A stretch of DNA of 64,000 nucleotides from an uncultured Bdellovibrio sp. (GTDB lineage Bacteria > Bdellovibrionota > Bdellovibrionia > Bdellovibrionales > Bdellovibrionaceae). The stretch spans positions 1 to 64,000 of the forward strand of contig CAWVRN010000010.1 in NCBI GenBank assembly GCA_963932905.1, written 5' to 3'. The translations under genes were made by a program, and so were the position numbers. The notes below the pieces were generated by a model. The model ran no database searches and was not told the origin of the DNA. It was given only the letters and a program-made list of their open reading frames with translations. Positions 10,708-46,649 of this stretch are shown in pieces (positions within the stretch are counted from its first letter, which is position 1; each line of letters opens with the position of its first letter).

Positions 10708-10717
10708 TATTTAATAA

Positions 10718-13111: not shown

Positions 13112-13138
13112 GAGGATTTAACTACATGAGTTTTAGAC

Positions 13139-13165: not shown

Positions 13166-13191
13166 AGAAATAAATATCTGATGTTTTAGTA

Positions 13192-13431: not shown

Positions 13432-13593
13432 CGTAACTCTCCTCTGTATCTGATTTCTATCAGACCTTCTCTCTATGAACTTCTTTCCGAATTTCCACTC
13501 AATTTCAAAAAACAATCGAGTAGCTGCAGTTTTTGCAATTTATTACTACCCGATAAATAAATTATTCACTGAGTCTACAGAAGTTTACAAGTC

Positions 13594-13842: not shown

Positions 13843-13916
13843 TTTAGCTCCATCCTTTTTGAGACCTATTCTATGTATTTAAAAAAATAGACTTTATCAA
13901 GTCTAATCTAATGGGG

Positions 13917-15251: not shown

Positions 15252-15264
15252 TTAAGACCCTTTA

Positions 15265-16038: not shown

Positions 16039-16044
16039 AAATAC

Positions 16045-16941
16045 CTACTTAGAAACGATCTGTTTAAAGGCTTCTTCTAAGGAGCCTTGTTCGGTTTTGA
16101 TATCTTCTACATCTTCTAAAGTCAGTGCTAAATCACGGAACAAGTTTCCCATCGACTCCTGAGACGGAATTTGAAATTCAAAAAAACCATCTTTTTTCTT
16201 AAGAAAATTTTTATGCGCAATAGTTTCGCGATCTTTACGTAGTTTAATCATGATTTTTTTCGCAGAAAATTGTTCGATGATTTGATTCGTCGGTCCTATA
16301 AACTTTAATTGTCCGCGATCGATGATACCCACGTGATGACATAACTCTTCTGCTTCCATCAAATAGTGCGTCGTCAGCAGAATTGACATACCTTCTTGCT
16401 GTAATTCTCGAACATAGCTCCATAAGTCTTCGCGAAGGGTGATATCGACACCCGCAGTTGGCTCATCCAGCAGCAGCAAAGCGGGTTTATGGACCAAGGC
16501 TTTAGCCACCATCAAACGACGTTTCATACCGCCCGATAGCTGTTTTACTTTTTTATTACGATGCTCATACAAACCAAGTTTATGCATGATATAGTCTATA
16601 CGTTCTTTGTTTTTCAAAATGCCGTAGTAGCCGGACATGAATTCTAAGATTTCAAAAACATCGAAGAAACCAGAATTGACGACTTCCTGGCCGACAACAC
16701 CGATACGACGTTTGGTTTCCATCGCGTCTTTTTCTACGTCGTAACCAAATACCTTAACTTGACCCGATGTTGGTTTTTCTAGTGTTGTGATAATGGAAAT
16801 AATTGATGTTTTTCCGGCACCGTTGGGTCCTAATAAACCAAATATTTCTCCTGGTTTGATTGATAGGGTAACGCCCTTGACTGCTTCCAATGTTCCGTAT
16901 GTTTTCTTTAAGTTAATCAGCTCTAATGCAAGTTGTGACAT
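16045..16941 (-). CDS. ABC transporter ATP-binding protein (YadG-like)
   Basis: GPNGAGKT, LSGGMKRR and LLLDEPTAGVD motifs. Confidence 0.95.
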   Translation of the reverse strand: MSQLALELINLKKTYGTLEAVKGVTLSIKPGEIFGLLGPNGAGKTSIISIITTLEKPTSGQVKVFGYDVEKDAMETKRRIGVVGQEVVNSGFFDVFEILEFMSGYYGILKNKERIDYIMHKLGLYEHRNKKVKQLSGGMKRRLMVAKALVHKPALLLLDEPTAGVDITLREDLWSYVRELQQEGMSILLTTHYLMEAEELCHHVGIIDRGQLKFIGPTNQIIEQFSAKKIMIKLRKDRETIAHKNFLKKKDGFFEFQIPSQESMGNLFRDLALTLEDVEDIKTEQGSLEEAFKQIVSK

Positions 16942-17046
16942 AGGCCGTAGCTTAATTCAGCGCTTTTGCATGTAAAGTTTTATTTATAAAGACTGTTGTT
17001 TGACTCAGCACAGGGATCATCCGTAGCTACCCTATGCTTGTTCTTG

Positions 17047-18651
17047 TTACCGAGATCGACTGATTGAACTTTGGAATTCCACATCCGGGTTTTCACGTTC
17101 GGCCCATTTTAGATCCCATTCTTGATTGAGTAGAATTACCGGCTGTTCATTCATATCACGATATATTTGAATGCCGCCTTTTAATTCCGATACGGGCTGC
17201 CCCGACACTTTGTCTTTAGGCCAACGAGCTACCGAAAATGGTAGACGGTTTTGTTTTACTTCTAAATTGTATTCATCCGCCAAACGATGCGCCAGAACCT
17301 CGAACTGAAGTTCCCCGACCGCGCCAATAATAGGATCTTGCATGCCTACATACGGATCGATGAATAATTGAATAGCACCTTCTTCAGCTAAGTGTTTCAG
17401 TGCCTCTTGCATTTTAGTACGCTTTAAAGCATCTCGCACAGAAAGTTTAGTGAATAACTCTGGTGCAAATTTTGGAATGTCTTCAAATACAATTTTTCCT
17501 CTTGAAGCGATACAATCACCGATCGAGAAATTGCCCGTGTCGTTGACACCGACGATGTCTCCCGCATAGGCAACGTCGACCGTTTCACGATCAGCGGCTA
17601 CGAATTGATTAGAGTACGCTAAACGAAGTTCTTTTTGCAGGCGCATATGCTGCACTTTCATACCGCGTTCAAATTTTCCAGAACAAATGCGAACAAACGC
17701 CACGCGATCGCGATGTCGGCGGTCCATATTGGCCTGGATTTTAAACACAAAACCAGAGAAGTTATCTTCGATCGGGTTCATTTCCGAACCTTCTCGTAAT
17801 TTGCGGGGCTGCACACCTGGTGCGTATTTGCAGAAGAAATCGAGGAATGTGTCTACACCGAAGTTTTGTTTAGCCGAACCAAACGTCACTGGCGAAATTT
17901 CGCCATTTAGAAAGGCTTGCACATCAAACGGAGGCAAGGCCGATTCGATCAGTTCCAGCTCATCACGCACTTGCTGAGCCGTTTCGCGATCTAAAAACTC
18001 ATCTAGTTTGGGGTCATCGATACCTTCGAACGGATATTTAGTGACTTCGTCACCTTCGCGGCGCTGATCATAGAACATCAATTCTTTGCTCACGCGATTG
18101 TAAATACCCTTAAAACGCTGACCAATACCTAATGGCCAAGTCACTGGGTAGCATTGCATCCCCAAAGTTTTTTCGATTTCATCGATCAATGTTAGCGGGT
18201 CTTTACCTTCACGATCGAGTTTGTTGACGAATGTGAAAATTGGGATTTGGCGATAACGGCAAACTTCGTATAGTTTCTTCGTTCGTTCCTCAACACCCTT
18301 GGCAACGTCGATCAACATCGCTGCAGAATCCACCGCCATCAATACGCGATAAGTATCTTCCGAGAAGTCTTTATGGCCGGGAGTATCTAGTAAGTTAATA
18401 CGTAACGAGTTATAATCAAAGGTCATCACAGACGAAGTGATCGAAATCCCTTTTTGGCGTTCCAGTTCCATCCAGTCCGATGTCACAGCCTTGGTGCCTG
18501 ATTTACCCTTAACTTCTCCAGTTTCGTGAATCACGCCCCCATGATAAAGCAATTTTTCCGTCAACGTCGTTTTACCGGCATCGGGATGGGAAATAATCGC
18601 AAACGTGCGGCGTCTTAGTATTTCTTTCTGGGTAGTAGCATCTGTAAGCAT
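17047..18651 (-). CDS. prfC: Peptide chain release factor 3
   Basis: RRTFAIISHPDAGKTTLTEK, DTPGHKDFSEDTYR and GAVGELQFEV motifs. Confidence 0.98.
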   Translation of the reverse strand: MLTDATTQKEILRRRTFAIISHPDAGKTTLTEKLLYHGGVIHETGEVKGKSGTKAVTSDWMELERQKGISITSSVMTFDYNSLRINLLDTPGHKDFSEDTYRVLMAVDSAAMLIDVAKGVEERTKKLYEVCRYRQIPIFTFVNKLDREGKDPLTLIDEIEKTLGMQCYPVTWPLGIGQRFKGIYNRVSKELMFYDQRREGDEVTKYPFEGIDDPKLDEFLDRETAQQVRDELELIESALPPFDVQAFLNGEISPVTFGSAKQNFGVDTFLDFFCKYAPGVQPRKLREGSEMNPIEDNFSGFVFKIQANMDRRHRDRVAFVRICSGKFERGMKVQHMRLQKELRLAYSNQFVAADRETVDVAYAGDIVGVNDTGNFSIGDCIASRGKIVFEDIPKFAPELFTKLSVRDALKRTKMQEALKHLAEEGAIQLFIDPYVGMQDPIIGAVGELQFEVLAHRLADEYNLEVKQNRLPFSVARWPKDKVSGQPVSELKGGIQIYRDMNEQPVILLNQEWDLKWAERENPDVEFQSSISRSR

Positions 18652-18761
18652 GAAAGAACCCTACCTGAAATATTTCCTATTGTCATTTATTCCGAGTTAT
18701 TTTATTTAAGGTGAATCATCTTTAAATATGGGTTTGGAGCCCAATTTTGTTAAGGAGTCAT

Positions 18762-19727
18762 ATGAATCAGCACGCCAATGCGGCCATCCCTTCGTACTTT
18801 ATCACCACTTTCTATCATTTTTTTCCCTTAAAAGACCTTGAGACAGTTAAAAGTGAGCTGAAAGTTATTGCAAAAACACACAAAACACTTGGTTTGATAG
18901 TTATTGGGCCGGAAGGTTTCAATTCTACTGTGGCTGCTGAATCAGCTGACGACTTGGCTACTTTTAAATCAGCCTTACAAAAACACTACGGGATTACGAT
19001 TAGCAACTTTAAAGACTCGTTCTCGGATGTCGCTCCTTTCCGCCGTTTTAGCGTGAAAGTGCGTGACGAAATCGTAACCGCTGGAATTCCAGGACGTTCT
19101 CCTGATCCTGGCATCAATCATCACTTGTCCCCAGAAGAGTGGGATCATGTTTTGAAAAATGAGACAGACTTTGCGTTGATTGATACACGTAACTGGTACG
19201 AATATAAAATAGGTACATTCAAAGGTGCGATTAATCCTAATATCGAAAAATTCACGGAATTTCCTGCGTTTTTTGAATCGCAGCAAATACCTAAGGACAA
19301 AAAAATTCTTATTTTCTGCACGGGCGGCATTCGCTGTGAAAAAGGAATTTTAGAATTACAAGACAAGGGCTACAAAAATGTATTCCAGCTGAATGGTGGC
19401 ATTTTAAAGTATATGGAAGAAAAACCACGTGAAGAGTTCGAAGGCGAATGTTTCGTGTTTGACAATCGCGTCGCTGTCGACGCGGATTTAAAACCAAGCA
19501 CGACCTACAAATTGTGTCCGCATTGTGGTCAGCCGGGAAACATCAAGATTGAATGTAAACGTTGTGATGTTCCCGCTTTGCTATGCGAATCCTGCTTAGA
19601 AATTGAGTGGAAAAAAGATACGTGTTCTAAAAACTGTGCTTACCAATACGAACTTCATCCAGATCGGAAGGGCAAACATCAAGTATTACACTATGAAGCC
19701 GCTCGAATGAAGACCCCTACACCCTAG
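18762..19727 (+). CDS. trhO: tRNA uridine(34) hydroxylase (rhodanese-related, UPF0176)
   Basis: DTRNWYE, FCTGGIRCEK, GGILKY and CFVFDNR motifs, plus a Cys-rich tail. AAGGAG RBS before ATG 18762. Confidence 0.92.
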   Translation: MNQHANAAIPSYFITTFYHFFPLKDLETVKSELKVIAKTHKTLGLIVIGPEGFNSTVAAESADDLATFKSALQKHYGITISNFKDSFSDVAPFRRFSVKVRDEIVTAGIPGRSPDPGINHHLSPEEWDHVLKNETDFALIDTRNWYEYKIGTFKGAINPNIEKFTEFPAFFESQQIPKDKKILIFCTGGIRCEKGILELQDKGYKNVFQLNGGILKYMEEKPREEFEGECFVFDNRVAVDADLKPSTTYKLCPHCGQPGNIKIECKRCDVPALLCESCLEIEWKKDTCSKNCAYQYELHPDRKGKHQVLHYEAARMKTPTP

Positions 19728-19808
19728 AGGCGTCTGCGTAAAAGTAAAAAGATCACCCAGACACATTTTGAACAAAAAACCTCAAGATAGTTTCTTACTA
19801 TCAAAAAC

Positions 19809-19842
19809 AAAAAAAAGGCTCGCCTTTAAGGACGAGCCCTTT
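19809..19842. terminator. Probable bidirectional terminator
   Basis: A-run, GGCTCG...CGAGCC stem and T-run between convergent genes. Confidence 0.7.
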
Positions 19843-19866
19843 TAGCATTTTCATTTTAAATCTTAA

Positions 19867-20559
19867 TTAAAGAATGATTTCCATCATCAAGTAAATGACC
19901 GCCGTTAAAGCAAACCCACAGCCGATAACGCCATTTACTGTCGTCATTGGCCCCAGTTTACCTTTCATACCGTTGAATTGTAATGCTCCCCATACGATGA
20001 ACATCGCGATCCAATATGTAGCGACATTATTTAAATCCATAGCAATCGGCAAGTGAGACGCACCAACCATGAAGAACAACATTGGGATCGAGAACATTGT
20101 ATTTGTTCTTGAACCTAATAGGGCACGCGCTCCGGCTGCTGCTGCGTCTGGATTAGCGGGTTTACCCTCCGCTACGTTTTTTGCATTTTCGATTACGATT
20201 TTTTGCGCTGGCCAAATGATGAACCATACGTTGAACCACATTGTGATACCAAGCAATGAACCTGTTAGGATTTTAACACCCCAATCACCTTGCAAGCTAA
20301 AACCAGTGTAGCTGGCTGTATGAAGCATCGCTAAACCAGTGACGAACGTCCACATCGCGCCCCAACGGAACCACCACAAAGCAATTGGCAAAAGTTTTTG
20401 CTGAACTTGTGACTTGGCAGGAGCGTCGGTCTGAGCCATGAACGCGCCTTGAGTGAAGTTAAAATAGTACAAATGACCAATCCAAAGAATACCAAAAAAT
20501 ATGTGTAACCACTTTAGAAAGAAATGAATACCTACAACGTTAAACAAAGCTAAATCCAT
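19867..20559 (-). CDS. PuuD/Urate_ox_N family membrane protein
   Basis: WLH...GILWIGHLYYFN, LWWFRWGA, FNVWFIIWPAQK and SRTNTMFSIPMLFFM motifs. Confidence 0.8.
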   Translation of the reverse strand: MDLALFNVVGIHFFLKWLHIFFGILWIGHLYYFNFTQGAFMAQTDAPAKSQVQQKLLPIALWWFRWGAMWTFVTGLAMLHTASYTGFSLQGDWGVKILTGSLLGITMWFNVWFIIWPAQKIVIENAKNVAEGKPANPDAAAAGARALLGSRTNTMFSIPMLFFMVGASHLPIAMDLNNVATYWIAMFIVWGALQFNGMKGKLGPMTTVNGVIGCGFALTAVIYLMMEIIL

Positions 20560-34781: not shown

Positions 34782-35288
34782 ATGAGTCTAATTAGACGCA
34801 GCTATTTAAGCCCAACTGTCAATTCAAACTGGAATATCTGGCGCGAATTTGACGATATGATGAGAAACTTTGGCCGGGATTACGATGTGGAAACCACAAC
34901 ACCGGGGAAGACGTTTTCTCCTCAAGCCGAATTAAAAGAAAATGAAAAAGGATATCTGCTAAGTTTCGACGTTCCAGGTATCACAGAACAAGATATTAAA
35001 ATCGACTTTCATGATTCTGTGCTACGCATTTATGGCGAACGCAAATCTGAACACAAAGATGAAAAAGATGGAACTTTTCATACAGAAAAATATTATGGAC
35101 ATTTCGAAAGATCATTTAGATTACCGGAAACTATTGATGACGCCAACATAGAGGCAAATTATAACAACGGTGTATTGCAAGTGTTTCTACCTAAAACACC
35201 AGCAAAAGAATCTAAAAAGATTGAAATTAGAAAAGGTGAAAATACAAACTTTAGCTCGGTGACTGCAAAGACACCGGATTCTCACTAA
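34782..35288 (+). CDS. Hsp20/alpha-crystallin small heat-shock protein
   Basis: DVPG, GERK, YGHFERSFRLP and ANYNNGVL.V.LPK motifs. Confidence 0.95.
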   Translation: MSLIRRSYLSPTVNSNWNIWREFDDMMRNFGRDYDVETTTPGKTFSPQAELKENEKGYLLSFDVPGITEQDIKIDFHDSVLRIYGERKSEHKDEKDGTFHTEKYYGHFERSFRLPETIDDANIEANYNNGVLQVFLPKTPAKESKKIEIRKGENTNFSSVTAKTPDSH

Positions 35289-35339
35289 CCCCTTCACAGA
35301 CCCGGGCGTAGCTGTTGTGGCTACGCCTCCCCCCTCTTG

Positions 35340-35387
35340 GAGCGACTCGGCCAATTCTGGCCTACTAAAAAAGAGTCGCTCTTTTTT
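35340..35387 (+). terminator. Branched terminator-like structure after hsp20
   Basis: GAGCGACTC...GAGTCGCTC stem with a T tail, enclosing GGCCA-ATTC-TGGCC. Confidence 0.55.
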
Positions 35388-37338
35388 ATTCGATAACAGA
35401 ATATATTTTATTAACATCAGGTGTGATCATTCGAATTTTTGACTGATCTAAAACAAATATAATTTTTTGATTTGGATCATAAAAGGCGTCTTTTAATCTC
35501 AGCGAACAGGCTGAATTTGTAACTCCATTCGCACAGTAACCAGATCCCCAGCTATTATTTCCAGCCAGCGTTTCCCACGTTGCTGAAGTGAAGTTATACT
35601 TTTTAAATTCACTAGAAAACCCGCTCTTGGCAAACACGTCTTTGCCATTTGGGCTTTCTAAAATAAAATTGCCACCAACTGCGAAATTTGAAATTTGCAG
35701 ACCAGATTGAGCCGACCCTGTTCTATCAAAACCCAATATTTGCGGATTTGCGCACGTCTGAACCGAAGCCACCGGCAAGGTGATTTCGCAGACTCGTAAA
35801 TAGATATTAAGAATGTCTTGGTAGCTCTCGTCAAAGGTGATGGCCGCAGAACCCGCACTGATTAAATCTTTTCCAGAATGGCTAGCAATGTCGTATACAT
35901 TTTTAGTACTTAGATACAACGTCTGGATTTTTTTTGATTCAGTGGATTTATAAATCCGCAACTTATAGCGGGTTGCGCTGACAGTATTTAAAGCCGCTTC
36001 AGGGTCGCTCGATTGAAAAATAAGCCAGCCATTAGGCAAACTTTGAAAAGTTCCATAAAAAACCAAATTATCAGAGTAATCAATTTTAAGATCCACAGCC
36101 GATTCTATAGAATCTTCGGTGCTGGCCCCACCACCAATCACTGTTGATAATACCGGAGACGCATCATTAAAATCTACTTTTCTGATCACTAGTTCAGAAC
36201 TTGCCGTCGCTTTTCTATCTAGAATCCACAAAACGCCAGAACTTGACCAAGTCATCCGAAGGGGTTCAACAACCTTGGCTATGCTACCCACTGCACCGTC
36301 AACACCGCTTGCTGCGATACCTATCCAAATGGAATTGCACGGTTCACCCGAACACATATTCACCATATCAATTTTTCGAATTCCTTTTATCCGGTCACGA
36401 ATCAAAATACTTGAGTTTGGCAAATAAACAATGGCTCCTGGATCAATCGATTGCGAGTTACCTTGAAATCCCGTGTAGCCATAACCTGTAGACGAGTTTT
36501 GAATTGTCAGACCCAACCATTTAGAAGTGTCTCCTGACGATGACGCTTTATAAAACGCATCCGATGACGTTGGGATCGTTACCGCCGTCTGCGTGATCGA
36601 TATTTTATCTGTCGCTGCCGTATCGGTATTAACCCGCTGATTACCAGCACGATCTTTCAATTGCAAATATACATCTTGAGTCGAATTCAACATCCCTGCG
36701 AAAAAAGTCAGAGTCGAACTCGTCACATGAGATTTTTTTCTCCAGCAGTCGTCGTCCTCATCAATCGCCGCGCTACTTGAATTTAGACAATAACCACCAA
36801 TACCAGACAAATCATCGGTATCGCCAGATACGGATAAATTCTTGAAAAACGTGAAAGGCGTGACTGGCAAACTGCTATTGAGGGTTAATCCACCGGTCGT
36901 TAGTGTTGGCAAAACACCATCAATCGTAAACGGTGACGTCGATTCGATTTGTTTCGTAGCTGGAATTTTTCCATAAGTCGTAATTCTAATTTTAAAATCA
37001 CTTCCTGAAATCCCTACCGGGATATTCCAATTTACAGATGTCAACTGATCCGAACTTGACAGCACCTTAGCTTGAATCAAATTCCAAGTCGCTTCAGAGT
37101 CGCGTTTGTATTCGATGACATTCTCGTTAACACCCATAACATCATCAAATACCTTGAAATTGATTTTATACGTCGAATCAGCTCGATACGCATCACCGCC
37201 CTTGAAGTTATAAAGGGTTATATCGGGACGATACGATAAACCGGTTCCATTGGGCTTGTCGACCTTTGGATCAGTAACGTTGCTAGAACAACCAACCAGA
37301 ACCAATGTAAGAAGGAAGGATAAAACTACAAACTTCAT
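35386..37338 (-). CDS. Lipoprotein with Ig-like N-terminal region and NHL-like propeller repeats (paralog of 37335-41171)
   Basis: Lipobox LVGC. Shares CSS.VTDP, NFKGG, SPFT.D, D.CW.K, KD.AGN and DAF.D with its neighbour. Confidence 0.7.
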   Translation of the reverse strand: MKFVVLSFLLTLVLVGCSSNVTDPKVDKPNGTGLSYRPDITLYNFKGGDAYRADSTYKINFKVFDDVMGVNENVIEYKRDSEATWNLIQAKVLSSSDQLTSVNWNIPVGISGSDFKIRITTYGKIPATKQIESTSPFTIDGVLPTLTTGGLTLNSSLPVTPFTFFKNLSVSGDTDDLSGIGGYCLNSSSAAIDEDDDCWRKKSHVTSSTLTFFAGMLNSTQDVYLQLKDRAGNQRVNTDTAATDKISITQTAVTIPTSSDAFYKASSSGDTSKWLGLTIQNSSTGYGYTGFQGNSQSIDPGAIVYLPNSSILIRDRIKGIRKIDMVNMCSGEPCNSIWIGIAASGVDGAVGSIAKVVEPLRMTWSSSGVLWILDRKATASSELVIRKVDFNDASPVLSTVIGGGASTEDSIESAVDLKIDYSDNLVFYGTFQSLPNGWLIFQSSDPEAALNTVSATRYKLRIYKSTESKKIQTLYLSTKNVYDIASHSGKDLISAGSAAITFDESYQDILNIYLRVCEITLPVASVQTCANPQILGFDRTGSAQSGLQISNFAVGGNFILESPNGKDVFAKSGFSSEFKKYNFTSATWETLAGNNSWGSGYCANGVTNSACSLRLKDAFYDPNQKIIFVLDQSKIRMITPDVNKIYSVIE

Positions 37339-40300
37339 AATTTTATCTCACCAACACCCATTAAACCATCATAGTTAACCGGGAAATACAGTTTCTTTTC
37401 AGAATCCGAGTATTCCATCGAAACGCCCGCGCACTGATAACCAATTGGCAATTTAATTTTTACGCTACTTACATTGGTGGCTTTCGATCCATCACCTGTG
37501 TGACTTGTCATTGTGTTATCAAATGTATATTTATATAACTCACCATTTGCGAAGCAAATATAGCCTGTGAAACTTGGCGATTGCGCGGACTTATAGATAA
37601 AATGGTGACTTCGTACCAATGTTGGTAAACCACTGATCAGTGTTCCTACTTTGCCTCCACCTGTTACCTGATTGGATCCATTTCTGACTAACGAGATATA
37701 TCGAATCCGTGTTTCATTTAGCCAGGATTCACTGGCGTAAGAAATGATATAGCCGGTTCCATTGAAATCCAGGTACTGCGCCTTAGCCGAACTTCGCGGA
37801 AATGCACTTGTTCCCGCGACAGCGGTTCCATCAGCTGGCCATGTGAATTTCAGCCCTGTCCACCAATCCGTCATAGTGATATTTCGCACCAGAGGGCCAC
37901 CATCAACACTCGTTCGCGTTAACTTCATGCCGCCTTGGCGATCATATTGGTACCAGGTCCATGTTGAAAATAAAACAAACGGATTCGAAGCACCTTCAAT
38001 AGGCAAAATGCCTTGAATTTCATAGGACCTATCAATTGTTTCACACATCGCCGGCGACGTCGCAGTCGCCTCACATGCATTTGAGTTCAATTCATAAATA
38101 CGCTTCGTTGGGTTCGTTGCCGGACTTCCCAGGATGACTTCCCAATAATCCTTGTTCGCTCCTGTGGTTCGATTCAAACGTGCAAAAACTCTTGAACCAG
38201 CGCGTGCATAGATATTACCTACTGAATCCGCATACACACCAGAGTTAAAATTAAGATTTGTCTCGGTCGCTGTGGCATTGGAAATTAAGCTTCCATTATA
38301 AGTCGGAGCAACCGTTTTATAGACATTCCCGGCAATTCTATTGATTTTGAATTTTAATGGATCATCCGGATCCATTGAAAATTCACGAACCAGGCTTTCC
38401 CCCTGATCATGCACTATAAGTTTCGTATCAGAACTATGCAAGCTGACCGAACGAATATTGTTAAACCGAGCCGACAAACTATCACCCAGTAACGGCTCGG
38501 AAGCATCATAATCACCTTGTGACTTTGAAATCCCAAACAAGGTCACTACGATCGAATCTCTGTAACTTGACGTTTTCCTCACCAACACACGCAATCGATC
38601 ACGGTCGAAAAAATATATATTATCATTCTCGTCAATAAATGCGTCTTGGATATCCACGGCACATTCTAAGGCTCTAGTCCCATCTTCACATTGTCCGGTT
38701 CCGCCAGTTCCTAATATACGCTCAAACTTATTTGTTGAACCCATATATTTAAACAGACCCGCCATGTTCCGGTTCATGCTATAGAGCTCTCCGCGACGGG
38801 ATGTAATTAATCGAATCGCATCGCCATTCCAATTTTCCGGAATGTATTGAGTTCCCTCGCCCACACTACTGCCGGACTTTGGAGAATAGTTAGCCGATAT
38901 ATAGAAATCACGACAAAGCGAAGAGTAGAACGGACATCCACGAGTGTGAATATTCAGTAGTTTATTTGTTTGATAGTTAAATGAAATTTGCGGATTAACC
39001 AAAGGAGCTAACGATTCGAAAGTTTGGTTTATGTATAATGTACCAAATCCTTTTGACGTATCCCCAGAAAATTTGTAATTTAACGAGCCTGCACCTTTAA
39101 ATGGAATCAAACGAATTTCTGCCGCTTTAGACGAAGTCGCGGCCGAGTAATAAGCATACCACGACGGACCAGCACCTCGATTAGCCTGTTTAATATAATT
39201 TCCACGACCAAAACCTAATTCACGACTATGAAATCCTTCCAGGAAAAAATCGCCATTAGGAAGCGGTGTAATCGTGGGTTTTTTCCCAAACTGACAACCC
39301 GGAGCTGCCGTGAAATCCATTTTTAAATTCTTAAATTCATCTTCGTAGAAAATATTTTCTTTTTTAATTTTATAGTTAGTATCCGATTGACGATCATAGT
39401 TTTGCTTGTCGATATTGTTTAAAAGCAAATTGCCCGCAGAATTCACTTTGTAAAAAGCATTTTCTAACACAAAATCAGATTCAATGAATTTAGTAGGGTC
39501 TTGAGAGTAACCGACGTATGGTCCATAAGCCGGGCTCGCTCGCAAATCGTTATTATGCGCACGCATGCAACCACGTATCGGAAAAAAGTTTATTCCCGTA
39601 CTCTCTGGACCACCGCCAAGCAGTGTGTATATTTTTCCGTCGGTATCAATTCGACGAATTCGATCTTTCTCGATAATTAAAAGACGATCTTGATAGTCAA
39701 TCGTCATAGTATAAATACCCTGAGTGGTCGCGCCCGCAACCATGCCGCCATCGCCACTTGAGGCCGTGTTGGCGTCTTTCTTTAAATAGACTGAAACTGA
39801 TCCATCATCTGGATTTAATAATAGGATGCCTTTGCGAGCGTCATTGATATACGCACGACTTTTAGTATCGATAACAAAACTAGCTTCACTAGAGGGTTTG
39901 AAGCCCGCCGAGTTGGCAGAACCGCCCAATCCCAAATCCAAGTTGCCGGCGATCAGACGGAACTTTCCACCATTCAAAGGAGGTGATACCGAAGTTGAAA
40001 CCATACCCAATGCCGATGTCGCTTTGATCCTTACTTGGAAATCGGCCGTCGATGTATAGGAGAACTGTTTACAGAAATCATATCCAGATTTTGGTGAACA
40101 CGTCATCGATGAAATCGGCGATCCATATGTATTACCACCATCTAAAGAAATAGTTAATTCAACTGCTGTTGGAACGTCGTCTGTTTTATATTGAACGTAG
40201 ACAACAGAACCACCACCCGTAAAATCTTGCTCCGTACTGGAAGGCGGAACTTCGGGATTACTTGTATTTGCAAAAAGAACTTTTTGGAACTGAATCGCCT

Positions 40301-41171
40301 TAGCTGGACTGTATGTATATTCTTTCTTATCAACACCGGCTTCACCTAAACCTGATCTTAATACCGAAATGTTACCCGCTTGATCCTTTGCCCAAATACG
40401 GAATACATAATCGCCGGGCAAAAACCCAAGCACGTAAGGAATATTTTCTAAGTTGATGACTTTGGATGCCGCCACACTAAATTCGGATACTTTTTTCCAA
40501 CACGCATCTGTTTCCGTAGGGATAACAGATTCCTGCGATGTTTTATTTAAATTTTTCGCACAAATGAATGCGATAGGTGATGTTGCGTCCGTAAAACCAA
40601 CATTGTAATAAAAATAGCTTTTTCTAATTGGCTGATTGTTATTCAACACCAATGAAGTATCCTTAACTATCGGAACGTCGTTATCTAAGGTGAATGGTGA
40701 ATCCGATTGCGTCGATTTTTCTTCACCCGATGAATTATTAATCGTTACGCGCAGAAGGAACTTATCGCCGCCGCTAATTTCTGGCACACGCCAAATATAG
40801 CTAACAGCATAGCCACTGAGAGCCGGAATTCTATAAGCGCCAGGGACTTGTTTCCACGAAGCACCTAAGTCGTCGGAATACTCTACACGACTAGAAAATA
40901 AACCATAATCGTTTTGATTTTCTGGTTTTAAAATCCAACGAATTTCTTGATCACTACCAGACCTAACGAATTCACCGCCTTTAAAATTAAGCAGGCTTAA
41001 CCCTGGCGGAGCCAAGTCTTCTTCGCTTGGAAGTATAGTCTCACCAAAATAGTCATCACCTAGGAGTCCTGTTGATAGCTGTGGGTCTGTAACTGACGAT
41101 GAGCATCCGGCTAAGAACAATACTAAAGAAATTAAGTTCGCGATGATAAAATGATTAGATAGGAATTTCAC
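37335..41171 (-). CDS. Large lipoprotein with NHL-like beta-propeller repeats
   Basis: GTG start and lipobox LAGC. IRRIDTDGKIYTLLGGG, GQCEDGTRA, RIAG and SARFN are NHL-type repeats. Confidence 0.7.
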   Translation of the reverse strand: MKFLSNHFIIANLISLVLFLAGCSSSVTDPQLSTGLLGDDYFGETILPSEEDLAPPGLSLLNFKGGEFVRSGSDQEIRWILKPENQNDYGLFSSRVEYSDDLGASWKQVPGAYRIPALSGYAVSYIWRVPEISGGDKFLLRVTINNSSGEEKSTQSDSPFTLDNDVPIVKDTSLVLNNNQPIRKSYFYYNVGFTDATSPIAFICAKNLNKTSQESVIPTETDACWKKVSEFSVAASKVINLENIPYVLGFLPGDYVFRIWAKDQAGNISVLRSGLGEAGVDKKEYTYSPAKAIQFQKVLFANTSNPEVPPSSTEQDFTGGGSVVYVQYKTDDVPTAVELTISLDGGNTYGSPISSMTCSPKSGYDFCKQFSYTSTADFQVRIKATSALGMVSTSVSPPLNGGKFRLIAGNLDLGLGGSANSAGFKPSSEASFVIDTKSRAYINDARKGILLLNPDDGSVSVYLKKDANTASSGDGGMVAGATTQGIYTMTIDYQDRLLIIEKDRIRRIDTDGKIYTLLGGGPESTGINFFPIRGCMRAHNNDLRASPAYGPYVGYSQDPTKFIESDFVLENAFYKVNSAGNLLLNNIDKQNYDRQSDTNYKIKKENIFYEDEFKNLKMDFTAAPGCQFGKKPTITPLPNGDFFLEGFHSRELGFGRGNYIKQANRGAGPSWYAYYSAATSSKAAEIRLIPFKGAGSLNYKFSGDTSKGFGTLYINQTFESLAPLVNPQISFNYQTNKLLNIHTRGCPFYSSLCRDFYISANYSPKSGSSVGEGTQYIPENWNGDAIRLITSRRGELYSMNRNMAGLFKYMGSTNKFERILGTGGTGQCEDGTRALECAVDIQDAFIDENDNIYFFDRDRLRVLVRKTSSYRDSIVVTLFGISKSQGDYDASEPLLGDSLSARFNNIRSVSLHSSDTKLIVHDQGESLVREFSMDPDDPLKFKINRIAGNVYKTVAPTYNGSLISNATATETNLNFNSGVYADSVGNIYARAGSRVFARLNRTTGANKDYWEVILGSPATNPTKRIYELNSNACEATATSPAMCETIDRSYEIQGILPIEGASNPFVLFSTWTWYQYDRQGGMKLTRTSVDGGPLVRNITMTDWWTGLKFTWPADGTAVAGTSAFPRSSAKAQYLDFNGTGYIISYASESWLNETRIRYISLVRNGSNQVTGGGKVGTLISGLPTLVRSHHFIYKSAQSPSFTGYICFANGELYKYTFDNTMTSHTGDGSKATNVSSVKIKLPIGYQCAGVSMEYSDSEKKLYFPVNYDGLMGVGEIKL

Positions 41172-43141
41172 TAGAACCCCCTACCGATACAACGTGCGGC
41201 TAGTTTTAAACTTCGTGTTTTAAATGATTTCTGCCCACTGGCAGATTGAAACGTCCAAGCTTTTGAACGATCTGAAGAATATACCGAAGCCGTCCATTCT
41301 TCGTTGGCATTTGAATCGGCCATATCTGGCAGGACAAACTTCATCCCGTTATAATGAGCGATTCGATAATCATAAAGCGTTGGCAAGCGCCAATAAATTT
41401 TCTGGGTCGAAGACGAATGAATTCCAGCTTTGCCCGCCGCTTTGCCTGATGGCACGACTCCGTGAACAAACTGAGGCACATCAGAATAGTTGTCACTGAA
41501 ACCAGTATCTTCAAAGCAAGCACTGATAATATTTTGAGATACATTTTGCTCTTGGTTAGCCTGCAAATTACAAATGTTGGACGGATCATTTTCCGCCAAA
41601 TCTGGCAACTTCTGATTATTGCTACTGCCAGAAGCACGGCACCAATTTATGTTCGCAGATACTCGAGAACTCCAAAACATTTTAGTATTTTCGTCTCGCC
41701 ACACCTCTACATAGCCCACACCGGTTGCATTCACGCGTGTGATTAATTTCCAAGTGCCAAAACCTGAATTACCCACACTGCCATCGCCATTCCATGTTGA
41801 TGTATTACGATTTGTTTGTGCAACCGAGGCACCTGAAAGAGCCGAATTTATAACAGAGACGCAATCACTAATACGAGTATCCACTGTGCCTGTAAGTCCA
41901 CATTGCGAAGTACCCCAAGACGTTCTATCAACAAAAAATGCACTCGATTCGCCATCATGATCAGTACCTACTACTGGTACCAGCCTGTGAGCCGTATTGG
42001 CAACACAACCAGAGGCCTTAGTCCACTTCATATCTAAACCGCAATAAGATTCATCCTTGTAGGTACCCTTAATGGTTCCATTATTTTTCGGAGCTCCTGT
42101 ACCCCATTCTGTAGGGTTACCATCATAGGTACCAACGACTCCAAATATGTCGACGCCGGTCTTAATATTCGAAGCGATTAAATTAACACCAATACCAGAG
42201 CTTTTGTTAGCCGAAGCAAACCAACAATTAGATACATTCGATACAGCATCGCATGCGACACCACGACCGCCATATAATTCTGAGTAGGGATAATTTCCCG
42301 CAGTTACATCACAGGCCACAGTGTTTGCCGAATTAATTGTGCAAGCATTGGTTACTTTGTAGTATGTTTTATCATTCGGAACATAGCATGACGTTGTATT
42401 GGCAGAACCGGCAGGGCTCGAATTGCAATTACCACTTTTGCCGTTGTAAGCAGTTGTATAGTAATATGAATCCGTCACACCCGGATCATCTTTTGGAGCT
42501 AAACAATCTTGTGAAATTAAACCCGTTGGATCCACTTTTGTACTGCACATTGGTAAATTTGAAGGACCGGCTAAATAGACGCCGGTACCTGTTTGCAACC
42601 AACATTTGGCCGGATTCATTGTTGTCGTCGCTGTCGGAATTGCGCAGTCAAGAGTCCGAGCACCATATGTATTTGGACTTCTATAAATAAAGTGGCTAGA
42701 AGTTACTTTACATTTATCAGTGATCGCCACAGGTGATCCCAAAGTTCCATAACTACATTCATTTAAAGATCCACTTCCTAATGGGAAACCAGAAACGCCA
42801 AATAATGTAAGGGAACTATCAAAGTTACCCGGTGAAAACAGACGACTGTCCAAGCTGGCAGTCTTTCCCTCATACCAGCCAGCGGGTAAAGTTTGTTCTA
42901 AAACGTTGGCTGTGAAAATAACATCGGATCCCACGGTACCACGTCCACCGTAAGGCAAATCATATACGTACTGGTTTGTTTTTGAGGTCACACACACTTC
43001 GGTGGTTGGCCCAGCATCAGGGCAGACCGGATACGCTTCCGCACCCACGATAAATCTGGTCAACCGATCGGTGAAGGATTGAGCTTGAGTGTAGTTAGAG
43101 AATGAAATCAGAAAAAAGATAGTAATAATAAATGATCTCAT
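41171..43141 (-). CDS. Secreted Cys-rich repeat protein with C-terminal DUF1566/Lcl-like domain
   Basis: Signal peptide (..YTQA), about 22 Cys and YxYxxxYGGR repeats. NIKTGVDIFGVVG, WRD..T...W, WRLPT, AW.F and RCIG motifs. Confidence 0.72.
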   Translation of the reverse strand: MRSFIITIFFLISFSNYTQAQSFTDRLTRFIVGAEAYPVCPDAGPTTEVCVTSKTNQYVYDLPYGGRGTVGSDVIFTANVLEQTLPAGWYEGKTASLDSRLFSPGNFDSSLTLFGVSGFPLGSGSLNECSYGTLGSPVAITDKCKVTSSHFIYRSPNTYGARTLDCAIPTATTTMNPAKCWLQTGTGVYLAGPSNLPMCSTKVDPTGLISQDCLAPKDDPGVTDSYYYTTAYNGKSGNCNSSPAGSANTTSCYVPNDKTYYKVTNACTINSANTVACDVTAGNYPYSELYGGRGVACDAVSNVSNCWFASANKSSGIGVNLIASNIKTGVDIFGVVGTYDGNPTEWGTGAPKNNGTIKGTYKDESYCGLDMKWTKASGCVANTAHRLVPVVGTDHDGESSAFFVDRTSWGTSQCGLTGTVDTRISDCVSVINSALSGASVAQTNRNTSTWNGDGSVGNSGFGTWKLITRVNATGVGYVEVWRDENTKMFWSSRVSANINWCRASGSSNNQKLPDLAENDPSNICNLQANQEQNVSQNIISACFEDTGFSDNYSDVPQFVHGVVPSGKAAGKAGIHSSSTQKIYWRLPTLYDYRIAHYNGMKFVLPDMADSNANEEWTASVYSSDRSKAWTFQSASGQKSFKTRSLKLAARCIGRGF

Positions 43142-45033
43142 TATTGATATCCTTTTTCACCGACACAGCGAACAACAATAGTTGAATCTGTCCGAGTTCT
43201 TACATCTGTGGCACCATTTCTAGAATCGAACACCCAAGCCTTGGTTAAATCCGTAGCGCGTGTCGTGCCTGTCCATTCCATATTTCCATTGCCTGACATA
43301 TCTGGCATGACATAGCGAATACCATTGTAGTCAGCCACTTCGTAGTCGTAGATTGTAGGAATACGCCATTTAACGTTAATAGGATTTGTACTTGTCTTAC
43401 CTTTAGCTAAAACATCGATTCGTGAATCCGTCGACGTTTCGTTTGTTCCTTCATAACAAGCCGATATGGCTTTTGTTATCCCGACTGGCTGAGTTTGATA
43501 AGTAGCGCTGTTGCAAAAGCCAGAACTATCGGCTGAATGCACGCCCGCCGCCTGGCACCAATTTAAAGTTTTAGAAACAACAGAGCTCCACAGTAACCCT
43601 GTACGTTCATCTCGCCATACCTCGCGATAGATGCCATCACCAGAAACATTTCCTGCCCGAGTCACTAATCTCCATGTTCCCTGACCGGCATTACCTTTAG
43701 TCGAACCCGTCCAGGTTGCATTGAAGTCATACTTATTCGCACAATCTATAATCCTATCAGAAATAGCTCCTGTAATACCGCAAGTAGAATTCCAGTTTAG
43801 TCGTAAAACTCCCGCGTCCAGTACGGACTGACTACCTTCATCGTCCAAAGCAATCGACGGAACCGACCGATAGCCCGCTGGCAGATTCACTTTATCTCGA
43901 TAACTGACAGATTCCGTGCTGAATGAAACCTGAGTGACATCCGATTCACGATGAGCCGCACTGGCCCACACGCCGTCGCCTTCGAACGAACCCATTACAT
44001 CGAAAATCTTTACACCATATTTAATATTTTGTGGTGACAAATCCGCATCAATCTCATCATAACCAACTTTGAAAAAACAGGATCCGTTATTGTCAGCGAT
44101 ACAATTATTACCTCGTCCGCCGTATGCAGCTGAATATACATACCAAGTTGGTGCCGTAGTTAAATTAGTGCGGCAAGAAACTGAAGTTGTGAAGCCAATA
44201 GAACGCGCATCCACGCAGCTATCTAAGGCTCCCATGCTAGATGCTGAGTCAGAAATTGTAACCGATCCACTTGGAATATTTAGCCAGCAACCTTTCAAAG
44301 ATGTCGATGTTCCACTACAATCTGTACGACCACCATCAACGGCCGAATACCAATAGTTAGTTGCACGCGCCGTACAGTTGTTAGCAACAGCCCCAGTACT
44401 TGAACAATCCAAGTCGTTGATCGGAGTTGTCGTGTTCATGCGCGTATTAACAGAATCAATCCAACAATCTGTAGTTAATTTCCCAGACGCATTCAAAGCA
44501 CAAATCGTTCCGCGACCACCATACTGAGATGTGTAGGCATAAAAAATACTCGACGATGTTCCCGAGACCATGCAACCGCTATCTTGTTCGTTGACACATT
44601 CGTCAGGCAAGCTCGTTACCATACTGCCATCAATGCCTAGAATATTTTTTCCTAAGCGGATTTTGCTTTGATTTGAAGAATTCAGATTTGCTTCTGTGAA
44701 TGTGACTTTAGTTTGTCCATCGTACCAACCCAGCGGAATGGCTAAAACAGAAAGGCCATTAGCACCCAAAAAAGATTTTCCAACTTGCGAACGGCCCCCG
44801 TAGGCAGAATCGTAAATGTAAGATCCAACTTTATCGACAATACATTCATTGGAATTGATTTCATTTGCTTTACACGACTTAGAGGCCACTAAACCAGAGC
44901 CATCGGTCTTTGTTCCAAAGGTGCTAACGCCCGGTCCACAGCCAAAATTTAAAAAGCTAGCAAACAACACTGTTGTAGCTAGTTTCAAGATCTGGTTTCT
45001 AGGTCTAAAATTTGAAACGATGGTCATTAGCAT
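43141..45033 (-). CDS. Cys-rich repeat lipoprotein with C-terminal DUF1566/Lcl-like domain (paralog of 41171-43141)
   Basis: Lipobox-like NFGC, about 21 Cys and four YGGR-type repeats. NIKYGVKIF, WRDERTGLLW, WRIPT, AWVF and VRCVG motifs. Confidence 0.72.
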   Translation of the reverse strand: MLMTIVSNFRPRNQILKLATTVLFASFLNFGCGPGVSTFGTKTDGSGLVASKSCKANEINSNECIVDKVGSYIYDSAYGGRSQVGKSFLGANGLSVLAIPLGWYDGQTKVTFTEANLNSSNQSKIRLGKNILGIDGSMVTSLPDECVNEQDSGCMVSGTSSSIFYAYTSQYGGRGTICALNASGKLTTDCWIDSVNTRMNTTTPINDLDCSSTGAVANNCTARATNYWYSAVDGGRTDCSGTSTSLKGCWLNIPSGSVTISDSASSMGALDSCVDARSIGFTTSVSCRTNLTTAPTWYVYSAAYGGRGNNCIADNNGSCFFKVGYDEIDADLSPQNIKYGVKIFDVMGSFEGDGVWASAAHRESDVTQVSFSTESVSYRDKVNLPAGYRSVPSIALDDEGSQSVLDAGVLRLNWNSTCGITGAISDRIIDCANKYDFNATWTGSTKGNAGQGTWRLVTRAGNVSGDGIYREVWRDERTGLLWSSVVSKTLNWCQAAGVHSADSSGFCNSATYQTQPVGITKAISACYEGTNETSTDSRIDVLAKGKTSTNPINVKWRIPTIYDYEVADYNGIRYVMPDMSGNGNMEWTGTTRATDLTKAWVFDSRNGATDVRTRTDSTIVVRCVGEKGYQ

Positions 45034-45182
45034 GTCATTGATCTATCGTCATTTTCTCAAGATTTATTGAGCCTGTCGCCACGTCCAGAAAATTAAAAAT
45101 GCCGCCTCATTATGAGACAGTTTTTATGACGTAAATATTCCATTTGCCTAAGTCTGTGATTTAATTCAAAGTCATCATTTCC

Positions 45183-46649
45183 ATGAGTCAAACAATACCA
45201 ATATTAGATTTAGGTGAAGAGTTCTTTGTTCCCGTTGTGGGCGGCCCTTTCACAGATCCCATATTGAGATATCGAAACCAAAAACAAGCCGTTTTTCTAG
45301 GTCTGGGCAAACTGACTGATGACGAATGGGTCAATCATTTCGGAAAATTTCGACCTCTTGAAAACAATTTACTGAATCCTTTAGCGATGAAATATCATGG
45401 TCATCAGTTTCAACATTACAATGCCGATTTAGGTGACGGTCGAGGATTTGTTTTCGCGCAATTTTTAAAAGGTAAACATCTATTTGAACTGGGCACAAAA
45501 GGTAGCGGACAAACACCCTATTCACGACGAGGCGATGGCAGATTAACTTTAAAGGGTGCGGTTCGCGAGCTCTTAGCGACTGATTATTTAGCCAAACAAA
45601 GGGTGTTAACCAGTCACACATTTTCTATCGTCGAAACCGCCGAAAAATTGGTTCGTCATGATGAACCATCTCCGACACGTTCGGCGGTTTTGTTTCGCTT
45701 AAGTCGCGGTCATATTCGTATCGGAAATTTTCAGCGTGCCTTGTTTTATCAAAACCGCGAAAACATTTTTAAACTTTTAGATTATTCACTAAAATATTTT
45801 TATCCCGAATTACCTATCACTGCCGATCCGAAAGAAAAAGTGGAATTACTTTTCAACAGCGTGACTTTGAGACTGGCGGATTTGTGCGCTTCCTATATGG
45901 TAGCCGGTTTTGTCCATGGTGTACTTAACACCGACAACATGAACGTTTCTGGTGAAAGCTTTGACTACGGCCCCTATCGCTTCCTGCCACACTATGATCC
46001 CTATTTTACGGCTGCTTATTTTGATCACGAAGGCCTTTACAGTTTTGGGCGCCAACCCCCTAGCTTTCTATGGAACCTAAATCAACTACGCGAGGTTCTT
46101 GCCTTTGCTGAACCAGCAGCCGACATGTCGCAACTGAACGACATTTTCGCGTTGCAGTTCAACGTTTTCTTTACATCTCGCTTTTTTAAAAAATTAAATT
46201 TAAAACCAAATGTAGCAGTCTCTGAAAATGATTTACTGACTGCCTTCATGTCGCTCTCGCCCGATTACTATTCAACGTCTGATTTTCCAGTTTTAAATAT
46301 AAACTCATTAAACGTGGCACCTATAAAGGAAATTAGCCAATCTGCATTTTTCGCTAATATTCAAAAAATTATCGAAAGTTTTTTCCAAGACCTATTTCAA
46401 AACAAAACTCGAGATTTTGAAACAGCGTTTTTGCAAATATTGAATTGGACACAAAAAGGACAACTAACAAGTTATTTTACAGATGACACTTTGGATTTAA
46501 TTAATCAGTATGCGACACCAATTAGTCAATTGACCGATGCACAGATTAAAATTCGAGATCAAAACTTGGTGATGGACGAGATAGAGAAAATTTGGGAACA
46601 GATTGATCAAAACGATGATTGGACTTTGCTCAACCATCGTTTGTCTTAA
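45183..46649 (+). CDS. selO: Protein adenylyltransferase SelO/YdiU
   Basis: YHGHQF, LGDGRG, KGSGQTPYSR.GDGR, GFVHGVLNTDN and DYGP motifs. Confidence 0.93.
   Translation: MSQTIPILDLGEEFFVPVVGGPFTDPILRYRNQKQAVFLGLGKLTDDEWVNHFGKFRPLENNLLNPLAMKYHGHQFQHYNADLGDGRGFVFAQFLKGKHLFELGTKGSGQTPYSRRGDGRLTLKGAVRELLATDYLAKQRVLTSHTFSIVETAEKLVRHDEPSPTRSAVLFRLSRGHIRIGNFQRALFYQNRENIFKLLDYSLKYFYPELPITADPKEKVELLFNSVTLRLADLCASYMVAGFVHGVLNTDNMNVSGESFDYGPYRFLPHYDPYFTAAYFDHEGLYSFGRQPPSFLWNLNQLREVLAFAEPAADMSQLNDIFALQFNVFFTSRFFKKLNLKPNVAVSENDLLTAFMSLSPDYYSTSDFPVLNINSLNVAPIKEISQSAFFANIQKIIESFFQDLFQNKTRDFETAFLQILNWTQKGQLTSYFTDDTLDLINQYATPISQLTDAQIKIRDQNLVMDEIEKIWEQIDQNDDWTLLNHRLS

Follow-up and report, generated by a model that had tools for sequence, protein, structure and literature searches.

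The window analysed here, a stretch of 64,000 nucleotides from contig CAWVRN010000010.1 of an uncultured Bdellovibrio sp., carries on its minus strand four successive genes, which we call A, B, C and D throughout. Its genome (4.55 Mb) has the handle G000; the other genomes and loci compared with it have G and L numbers, and g1, g2 and g4 denote genera. In an original prediction, made from the letters of the window, the four genes had been proposed to form a '2+2' surface module: two Cys-rich proteins with YGGR motifs and Lcl-type ends, coupled to two lipoproteins with NHL-like propellers. Our comparison of sequences and gene neighbourhoods points to A-D being a real, conserved gene module, which in relatives forms one cluster with genes for a MotA/MotB-like motor and for a predicted β-barrel protein (X), and so to an undescribed motor-linked surface machine.

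Four overlapping genes for exported proteins

The four open reading frames (ORFs) lie exactly where the original prediction had placed them (Table 1). The three junctions are overlaps of 1, 1 and 4 nt, with the stop/start sequences that had been read: CAATAATGAGA (TAATG) for A/B, TTCTAGTGAAA (TAGTG) for B/C and TTATGAAG (ATGA) for C/D. Purine-rich stretches stand 6-8 nt ahead of the starts of C and D. The genes on either side were confirmed as those for Hsp20 (E 4.7e-24) and SelO (E 1.4e-114); because both lie on the opposite strand, the operon consists of A-D only.

Table 1. Features of the A-D locus, in positions of the window
Feature	Position	Strand	Basis
Gene A, Cys-rich lipoprotein, 630 aa, 21 Cys	43141..45033	-	ORF list, Pfam Lcl_C, alignment A1
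Signal peptide and lipobox of A (..FLNFGC, Cys32)	44938..45033	-	sequence, ortholog alignment
Four Cys-framed YGGR units of A	44077..44874	-	regular-expression scan, invariant Cys/Gly/Arg alignment columns
Likely C-type-lectin-like C-terminal domain of A, residues ~415-630	43144..43791	-	Lcl_C matches, structure search
Gene B, paralog of A, 656 aa, 22 Cys	41171..43141	-	ORF list, BLASTP, own clade
Gene C, lipoprotein, 1278 aa, GTG start, with Asp-box Ig-like N-terminal domains and a long NHL-type region	37335..41171	-	ORF list, TEN_NHL
N-terminal module of C common to D, residues ~50-290	40302..41024	-	BLASTP C versus D
Gene D, lipoprotein, 650 aa, short paralog of C	35386..37338	-	ORF list, BLASTP, alignment A2
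Ig-like N-terminal domains of D, residues ~37-260	36559..37230	-	matches in giant proteins
NHL-type propeller region of D, residues ~290-650	35389..36471	-	profile matches to solved NHL propellers
Divergent A/selO intergenic region, presumed operon promoter region	45034..45182	.	position only

The proteins form two diverged pairs of paralogs, as had been proposed. A and B are 31% identical over their full length (E 4e-67). C and D are 27% identical over their first ~290 aa (E 7e-21) and share an additional C-terminal piece (BLASTP E 6e-06); D is in effect a shortened C. No second copy of the A/B family or of the C/D family was found in the 4.55-Mb genome itself. The sequences also bear out the predicted export signals, lipoboxes in A, C and D and a signal peptide in B. 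The boxes of C (LAGC, Cys23) and D (LVGC, Cys17) are canonical, whereas that of A (LNFGC, Cys32) is not. Most orthologs of A have a Cys at the position aligned with Cys32 (alignment A1), in boxes such as IAGC, LTGC and ATGC; as these boxes are canonical and stand at the aligned place, we read A as a lipoprotein. The signal of B is of the signal-peptidase-I type (..YTQAQS) in its own clade, and B of other clades has a lipobox. A, C and D are lipoproteins in every cluster architecture described below.

Behind the lipobox, orthologs of C and D have a motif in common, C-x-x-x-[VIL]-x-[DE]-P, which reads CSSSVTDP in C (41079-41105) and CSSNVTDP in D (37288-37311). It was present in 22 of 31 distinct C/D sequences, in 0 of 27 A/B sequences and in 1 of 55 other lipoproteins of those loci, and this single protein belongs to an X-linked cluster. 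The motif could be a sorting or docking tag, or simple inheritance.

A and B are marked by a Cys-framed unit, Y-x-Y-x(3)-YGGR, of which each has four copies (residues 72-81, 165-174, 227-236 and 298-307 in A). The motif is specific to the family: 77 A/B-family ORFs hold 186 copies (3.84 per 1000 aa) and 744 other ORFs of the same loci hold 4 (0.02 per 1000 aa), so that it is ∼190 times denser in the family. At the C-terminal end, A matched positions 3-116 of the 117 of the Lcl_C profile (PF07603) with 26.3 bits, B scored 16.3 bits and the best ortholog 33.1 bits, all below the Pfam cut-off of 34.9. The match recurs across the family, at E<=0.01 in 15 of the 21 members of alignment A1 (best 1.7e-06), and 6 of the 42 relatives of A that were found carry a precomputed PF07603 call. 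A structure model of A, built from the 21-sequence alignment, had a mean predicted local distance difference test score (pLDDT) of 44.2 and a predicted template modelling score of 0.32; its YGGR region was unusable and its C-terminal domain (pLDDT 50-62) only weakly usable. In a structure search with this low-confidence model, rows 2-50 of 50 were C-type-lectin-like domains, with Z values of 4.1-5.6 and none reaching 8. The predicted Lcl/DUF1566-type end of A and B thus holds, by family-wide matches below the Pfam cut-off together with weak fold matches; because the Z values are weak, we call the C-type-lectin-like fold of the modelled C-terminal domain likely, and not proven. Leads from a protein atlas, all below 0.9, were Lcl_C for A (0.89) and NHL for C (0.83), the leads for C being all NHL. 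The A-family profile gave 0 matches at E<=1 against PDB sequences, NCBIfam returned nothing meaningful for A-D, and A and B contained no collagen or Gly-rich Pfam family and no Gly-X-Y repeats visible in the translations.

Two adhesins with solved lectin-type ends are the closest comparisons for A and B. The first is Lcl, the Legionella collagen-like adhesin, whose Lcl_C profile runs end to end over the last ~200 residues of A and B; its C-terminal domain (8q4e) aligned with the low-confidence A model over 119 residues (Z 5.3, root-mean-square deviation (rmsd) 4.6) and has a C-type-lectin-like fold that binds glycosaminoglycans (PMC11162425). A and B differ from Lcl in that they have neither collagen-like repeats nor an N-terminal amphipathic helix and carry instead a lipobox or signal peptide and four YGGR units; moreover, the Lcl C-terminal domain has no disulfides, as against 21-22 Cys in A and B. 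The second is Bd2740 of B. bacteriovorus (8oks), to which the A model aligned over 101 residues (Z 5.2, rmsd 3.8). Bd2740 is a predator surface protein that ends in a calcium-independent C-type-lectin fold, and fibres of this kind have been assigned a prey-handling role (PMC10769870). The MAT fibre proteins of this species, however, are long and trimeric, and Pfam found neither a fibre nor an S74 family in A-D; A and B are lipoproteins or secreted proteins, and their fixed partners are propeller lipoproteins, joined in relatives by the motor.

For C and D, the predicted NHL-type propeller is upheld by profile homology to solved NHL propellers and by TEN_NHL matches in relatives. Against the PDB, a D-family profile (alignment A2) matched SOQ1 (7djm, E 3e-07) and Pizza designs (to 2.6e-05), with teneurin and NHLRC2 weaker. 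TEN_NHL scored 12.3 bits in C of the window, below its cut-off of 27.1, and 35.6 bits, above it, in the C ortholog of G075; it was matched by 11 of 26 D-family members (E<=0.05) but not by D of the window. Judged by these profile matches, C and D belong to the NHL-type propeller fold class. They share this class with teneurin (PF25021), SOQ1, NHLRC2 and the PknD sensor, from which the Pizza designs derive, and they differ from all of these in their lipid anchor, their Asp-box Ig-like domains and their fixed pairing with lectin-type proteins.

D relatives numbered 80 among cluster representatives. Giant proteins of 1400-3600 aa contain as many as 11 copies of the N-terminal unit of C and D; they also carry BNR/Asp-box, Reelin_subrepeat-B, Kre9_KNH and Big_ (bacterial immunoglobulin, Ig) domains and in one case a Por_Secre_tail (type-9 sorting tail). 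From this domain company we take the unit to be Ig-like, of a kind typical of surface proteins. Proteins of 1570-2280 aa that contain the Ig-like and NHL part of C (residues ~96-525) were found in 22 of 26 g4 genomes (e.g. G083:C1:2693430-2694818); in the same genus X was found in 0 of 26 genomes and an A-type match in 1 of 26.

Conservation of the module and its linkage to motor and barrel genes

How widely does the set occur, and in what company? We surveyed 201 genomes of the order, among which A-type matches were found in 16, D-type matches in 17 and C-type matches in 44. Full-length A and D were present only in G000, G179, G075, G165, G177 and G185, and pieces were found in the fragmentary G199. 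A survey of loci combined an A-family alignment scan of one-genome-per-species contigs (40 loci) with maps of ORFs and hidden Markov model matches, plus one metagenome locus. Here A, B, C and D occurred together at 20 loci from 16 genomes or metagenome-assembled genomes (MAGs) of Bdellovibrionota, with A preceding B in all 20 and with C and D beside the A-B pair. The coupling of the two families, which the original prediction had proposed from a single operon, was thus found across genomes. Three genomes of genus g2 (G075, G165 and G177) and the MAG isolate LC001 have two diverged copies of the whole set. About 20 further loci had a solitary, mostly shorter Lcl_C-type protein without C or D in the fetched DNA, several of these contigs being short or ending nearby.

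A quick maximum-likelihood tree was made of 28 A/B sequences from 14 loci and four solitary relatives. The proteins at position 1 (A) and at position 2 (B) formed two clades (Shimodaira-Hasegawa-like approximate likelihood ratio test, SH-aLRT, 93 and 88) with a mirrored inner topology. Because the two clades mirror each other, the A/B duplication is older than the spread of the set, both copies having been kept throughout. One locus, L038, comes from a MAG labelled Pseudomonadota, and its A, B and X group in pairs with their counterparts from G179, a member of the window's own genus; it looks as if the phylum label is wrong or the contig mis-binned.

At 15 of the 20 A-B-C-D loci, the fetched DNA also held genes for a MotA-like protein, a MotB-like protein and X, interleaved with the module or abutting it, in at least five gene orders. 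Six loci, including those of Pseudobdellovibrio sp. HCB154 and Bdellovibrio sp. qaytius, have the order MotA-MotB-A-B-C-X-D, and two have A-B-MotA-MotB-C-X-D. At four loci A'-B'-C'-D' converges on X-(223 aa)-MotB-MotA, and at one X is followed by A-B-D-C and then by MotB-MotA on the other strand. The order MotA-MotB-(gene)-X-A-B-D-C was seen in L059 and in G179, whose fetched stretch starts inside MotB. One additional locus, on a truncated contig, reads C-D-MotA-MotB..X. In L001, genes overlap even across family borders (MotB/A by 8 nt, C/X by 10 nt). Given 15 of 20 loci, at least five orders and these cross-family overlaps, chance adjacency is no explanation.

Two further genes were seen near the motor genes of relatives. 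A small gene stands between those for the MotB-like protein and X, encoding 223 aa in L002 (14332-15003) and 266 aa in L003 (14628-15428), with no Pfam match, and L059 has room for a gene at this place; the small gene could encode an eighth component. In L001 (G075), the MotA-like gene is immediately preceded by an ORF (16070-16912) that ends in a Peptidase_S74 endosialidase-chaperone domain (E 2.7e-21), as some MAT fibres of Bdellovibrio do (PMC10769870).

In the window's own genome the motor genes and X are present on a contig other than that of A-D, in the order MotA(318)-MotB(382)-X(435) at G000:C1. A tree of 23 X sequences placed this X, together with its close orthologs, among the module-linked X (SH-aLRT 98) and separately from the X of another type of cluster, with a subtilase, described below. 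One of the close orthologs belongs to a MAG named by its source as Bdellovibrio sp. 28-41-41, which also holds the stand-alone module locus L012. At the motor/X locus of the window's genome (L006), a HAMP histidine kinase gene (6381-8321) lies directly upstream of the MotA-like gene, and a gene for an LpoB-family lipoprotein (12679-13272, E 5.7e-42) lies ∼0.9 kb downstream of X.

Presence and absence were compared within genera. In g2, searches with A, C, D and X each matched 4 of 14 genomes, and these were the identical four (G075, G165, G177 and G185). In the window's own genus, A, D and X were found in G000, G179 and G199, with C not matched in the fragmentary G199; G150, of the same genus and 99% complete, had no D, C or X match. 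The search for X was also negative in 26 of 26 genomes of genus g4, which rules the system out as the gliding motor common to the group. Such a distribution is that of an accessory, patchy system.

The motor proteins, X and a second lipoprotein set

Proton-driven 5:2 motors power flagella, Ton/Tol transport, myxobacterial and Bacteroidota gliding and Zorya defence. The partner genes of the module encode true homologs of flagellar MotAB/PomAB, with the plug, the invariant Asp and the conserved prolines. The MotA-like protein matched flagellar MotA/PomA over its full length (E 4e-23), and a PDB search with it at E<=0.01 returned MotA/PomA chains only, with no ExbB/TolQ. The MotB-like protein keeps the plug/transmembrane helix (MotB_plug, 51.7-60 bits), in which D31 is invariant in 14 sequences; its N-terminus matched B. 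subtilis MotB (6ysl, E 8.9e-14), and the PDB matches end at profile position ~166 of 358. Then follow ~160 charged residues that matched only coiled-coil chains and a conserved domain of ~110 residues without a Pfam or PDB relative, for which there were weak Y_Y_Y/Ig-like hints only.

Unlike flagellar MotAB, this motor has no OmpA-type peptidoglycan domain (Pfam found no OmpA family, that is no peptidoglycan-binding end, in the MotB-like proteins), and all eight aligned MotA-like proteins that accompany X lack a cytoplasmic segment of ~20 residues. The canonical MotA of the genome reads ..FRKEGPQGIEKHIEDP.. at this place, which we take to be the site of the rotor-contacting charged residues. 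The genome has three MotB_plug genes, two of them of the type that accompanies X and one in a canonical MotA/MotB pair with an OmpA-like end, located elsewhere. The motor also differs from the ExbBD/TolQR-type motors (Ton, Tol-Pal, Agl): its A subunit is of the MotA/PomA lineage and its B subunit matches MotB_plug, not ExbD.

X (~430 aa) had no Pfam match, and the X-family profile gave only chance-level matches against the PDB (E 0.45-0.93). In its structure model (pLDDT 85.6), a signal peptide is followed by two β-sandwich domains (residues 23-223), then by a short helix of low confidence and finally by a barrel of 10 strands. The modelled barrel, the C-terminal 190 residues, superposed on pOmpT (Z 20.9), OpcA (Z 19.3) and Dot/Icm porin I (Z 18.2) over 183-186 residues, at an rmsd of 2.3-2.8 and 8-12% identity. 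X differs from the OmpT/Pla omptins, OpcA and porin I in that it has no sequence-level match to them and adds the two N-terminal β-sandwich domains, an invariant GKGExW motif and two invariant Cys; most members of the family end in an aromatic residue. Since known barrels with an even number of strands have both ends in the periplasm, the β-sandwich domains of X would be periplasmic. A complex prediction for X (residues 22-435) with the end of the MotB-like protein (residues 250-382) returned 'no answer' (0.00 against a mark of 0.32) and weighs neither way.

The motor and X were also found with another lipoprotein set, consisting of an S8 subtilase lipoprotein (1127-1256 aa) and two other conserved lipoproteins. 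Clusters of this type were found on contig C19 of the window's own genome, in four of the other genomes searched and at four metagenome loci, and other families have the set too. On C19 it occupies ~6500-19900 (L055 6498-7781, L005 1-11821), with two X paralogs, the S8 subtilase (1166 aa), lipoproteins of 804 and 905 aa and a MotB-like/MotA-like pair, and it stands between flgF/G/A/H/I-like and fliM/fliN/flhB/flhA-like genes (names read from the translations). As two lipoprotein sets occur with them, the motor and X look like one shared engine to which different lipoprotein modules can be fitted.

A possible motor-driven surface apparatus and its alternatives

Of the readings considered we favour one, although as an even call: A-D would form the outer-membrane part of an envelope system of seven genes that is linked to a proton motor and, in this genome, divided between two loci. 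That A-D depend on the motor and X for their function is a claim that we hold to be just as evenly balanced. In such a system the MotA/MotB-type unit would turn proton flow into movement of the coiled coil of the B subunit, which at ∼24 nm (about 0.15 nm per residue) would be long enough to span the periplasm. At the outer membrane, the C-terminal domain of the MotB-like protein would dock with the periplasmic domains of X, and A-D would assemble at or around X. C and D would serve as lipid-anchored propeller/Ig scaffolds and the retained A and B pair as ligand-binding heads of the lectin type, so that the motor could move, load or expose an adhesive assembly in surface adhesion, gliding or prey contact. 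We propose more tentatively, as something rather less probable, that some Bdellovibrionota, including the epibiotic predator B. qaytius, have a new non-flagellar, MotAB-derived trans-envelope motor. In its B subunit a coiled coil that spans the periplasm and docks on a dedicated 10-strand outer-membrane barrel would have replaced the cell-wall anchor, and the motor would drive interchangeable surface lipoprotein 'tool heads', either the lectin/propeller set or the subtilase set. If true, this would be a proton-driven apparatus for adhesion, gliding or prey handling unlike Agl-Glt, GldLM/T9SS, Ton, Tol or Zorya.

Several observations weigh against tying A-D to the motor in this way. The module stands alone at 5 of the 20 loci, namely in the window and in four close relatives (for those four, ∼2 kb past D was fetched). 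All links between A-D, the motor and X are links of gene neighbourhood and co-occurrence, and the 20 loci come from few clades, in which relatives are not independent. X is the one protein with a confident model, that of A being poor. X was found in none of the g4 genomes, and the position of the subtilase cluster inside a flagellar gene cluster leaves room for a role related to the flagellum.

The alternative that survives best, although we consider it unlikely, is close to the original prediction of a stoichiometric complex: A-D would be a self-sufficient, static outer-surface adhesin, with propeller bases, disulfide stalks and lectin tips, that recognises prey or surfaces, and the MotAB-like proteins and X would be unrelated to it. 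It would fit the lone module of this genome and its four close relatives, the support for lectin-type and propeller folds and the retention of both A and B since before the architectures diverged. A precedent exists in B. bacteriovorus, which displays a C-type-lectin-tipped Bd2740 fibre whose deletion slightly delays prey entry (PMC10769870). A-D may have a role in prey recognition. The linkage to the motor and X, however, argues against a self-contained static complex: 15 of the 20 loci have the module interleaved with or abutting these genes, in at least five orders and with cross-family overlaps. Even this genome keeps, elsewhere, an X of the module-linked type, and the genomes of genera g1 and g2 have either both X and the module or neither.

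A somewhat more doubtful alternative keeps the motor and makes A-D its cargo. The MotA/MotB-like proteins and X would then, driven by protons, carry their cognate lipoproteins to the cell surface or set them free, and A-D or the subtilase set would act independently afterwards instead of belonging to the machine. That two unrelated lipoprotein sets accompany one kind of motor and X is consistent with this, as are the lipoprotein nature of A, C and D in all architectures and the post-Cys motif in 22 of 31 C/D sequences. The motif may be mere inheritance among paralogs, however, and it was found in 0 of 27 A/B sequences; a 10-strand barrel of the OmpT/OpcA type would, judging by its fold class, be narrow for a translocon, and no homology to known lipoprotein exporters was seen.

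We regard it as quite improbable that the MotA/MotB-like proteins are extra stators of the sheathed flagellum, with X and the lipoproteins as a scaffold around the motor, in the periplasm or outer membrane, in the manner of the rings and disks that hold the stators in Vibrio and Campylobacter. This explanation would suit the flagellar MotA/PomA and MotB lineage of the two proteins, the place of the genome's own subtilase cluster among flg/fli/flh-like genes and the B. qaytius module cluster, which lies ∼3.3 kb downstream of fliR/flhB/flhA-like homologs. That cluster (L023) is, however, the only module-type locus at which such adjacency was seen; none was seen at the other five loci of the same architecture or at the engine locus of the window's own genome. 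In addition, 8 of 8 engine MotAs are without the ~20-residue cytoplasmic segment, and a canonical MotA/MotB pair with an OmpA-like end is present elsewhere in the genome. The least probable explanation is envelope maintenance by periplasm-facing A-D, which with the motor and X would tether or remodel the outer membrane or wall in the way of Tol-Pal, a system that combines a motor and force transducer with a β-propeller protein and a lipoprotein of the outer membrane. In its favour are the analogous parts (a motor of the 5:2 type, a B subunit resembling a long periplasmic transducer, propellers of the six-blade type and lipoproteins of the outer membrane), as well as the LpoB-family gene ∼0.9 kb from X and the motor-driven outer-membrane functions and OMP-TolB-like proteins of Bdellovibrionales covered in PMC12204202, but a patchy distribution (X in 4 of 14 g2 and 0 of 26 g4 genomes) is unlike a core envelope role, the Ig-like units of C and D are those of giant surface proteins, one with a Por_Secre_tail, and the heavy disulfide content and lectin-type ends would suggest an external ligand.

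If A-D do work with the motor and X, which systems would resemble them? In overall design, the system comes nearest to GldLM with GldK/N/J, Tol-Pal, Ton, Agl-Glt and SiiAB, without belonging to any of them. GldJ/GldK-type lipoproteins may share a distant fold class with the ends of A and B. The likeness to non-flagellar 5:2 motors lies in operons with outer-membrane components, as in the motors energising outer-membrane processes that are listed in PMC12204202; GldLM, for instance, has a long periplasmic subunit that extends to lipoproteins of the outer membrane (PMC13104615). Neither X nor the lectin/propeller or subtilase sets, however, resemble the partners of MotAB/PomAB, ExbBD-TonB, TolQR-TolA-TolB-Pal, AglRQS-Glt, GldLM, SiiAB and ZorAB. 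The system also differs from Zorya and other known anti-phage systems in that none of the seven proteins (MotA-like, MotB-like, X, A, B, C and D) matched a PADLOC-DB family at E<=0.01.

The statement that this is not a described system still stands: no description was found in the titles and main-text passages covered of the literature on Bdellovibrio, DUF1566, NHL, gliding/MotAB and qaytius. A term look-up in the main text of a comparative-genomics paper (PMC11656739) found no mention of MotA, MotB, NHL, Lcl, DUF1566 or lectin. In a second such paper, 10.1101/2025.02.19.638989, the term look-up found as the only related mention the loss of motAB1/motAB2 in epibiotic strains, and the DUF1566 literature, among the matches listed, mainly concerns diversity-generating retroelements, Lcl and Leptospira. 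Should the proposed link between A-D, the motor and X be true, a motor of the MotAB lineage without a cell-wall anchor would form a new branch of the 5:2 motors, wired to an outer-membrane barrel of its own and to swappable sets of large lipoproteins. It would bear on predation, in which lectin-tipped surface proteins have been implicated through prey handling (PMC10769870). Its carriers include the culturable Pseudobdellovibrio sp. HCB154 and B. qaytius and make it directly testable.

Finally, a consensus scan of 35000-45400 for promoters and terminators gave 26 and 9 sites, respectively, and did not stand out from shuffled sequence (22.8 and 9.5 expected). Directly 3' of the D stop, at 35340-35381, lies a 9-bp inverted repeat, GAGCGACTC ... 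GAGTCGCTC, around a smaller GGCC..GGCC hairpin. The repeat was absent from the output of the terminator scan, and one contig from an RNA library crosses it, reaching 35307. This library, the metatranscriptome run X14, contained 5% of the sampled words; five of its contigs, of 151-217 nt, map to D (35307-36572) and to the 5' end of A (44805-45021), and since RNA libraries can contain DNA, these may or may not be transcripts. The DNA runs with large word shares were groundwater and wastewater metagenomes.

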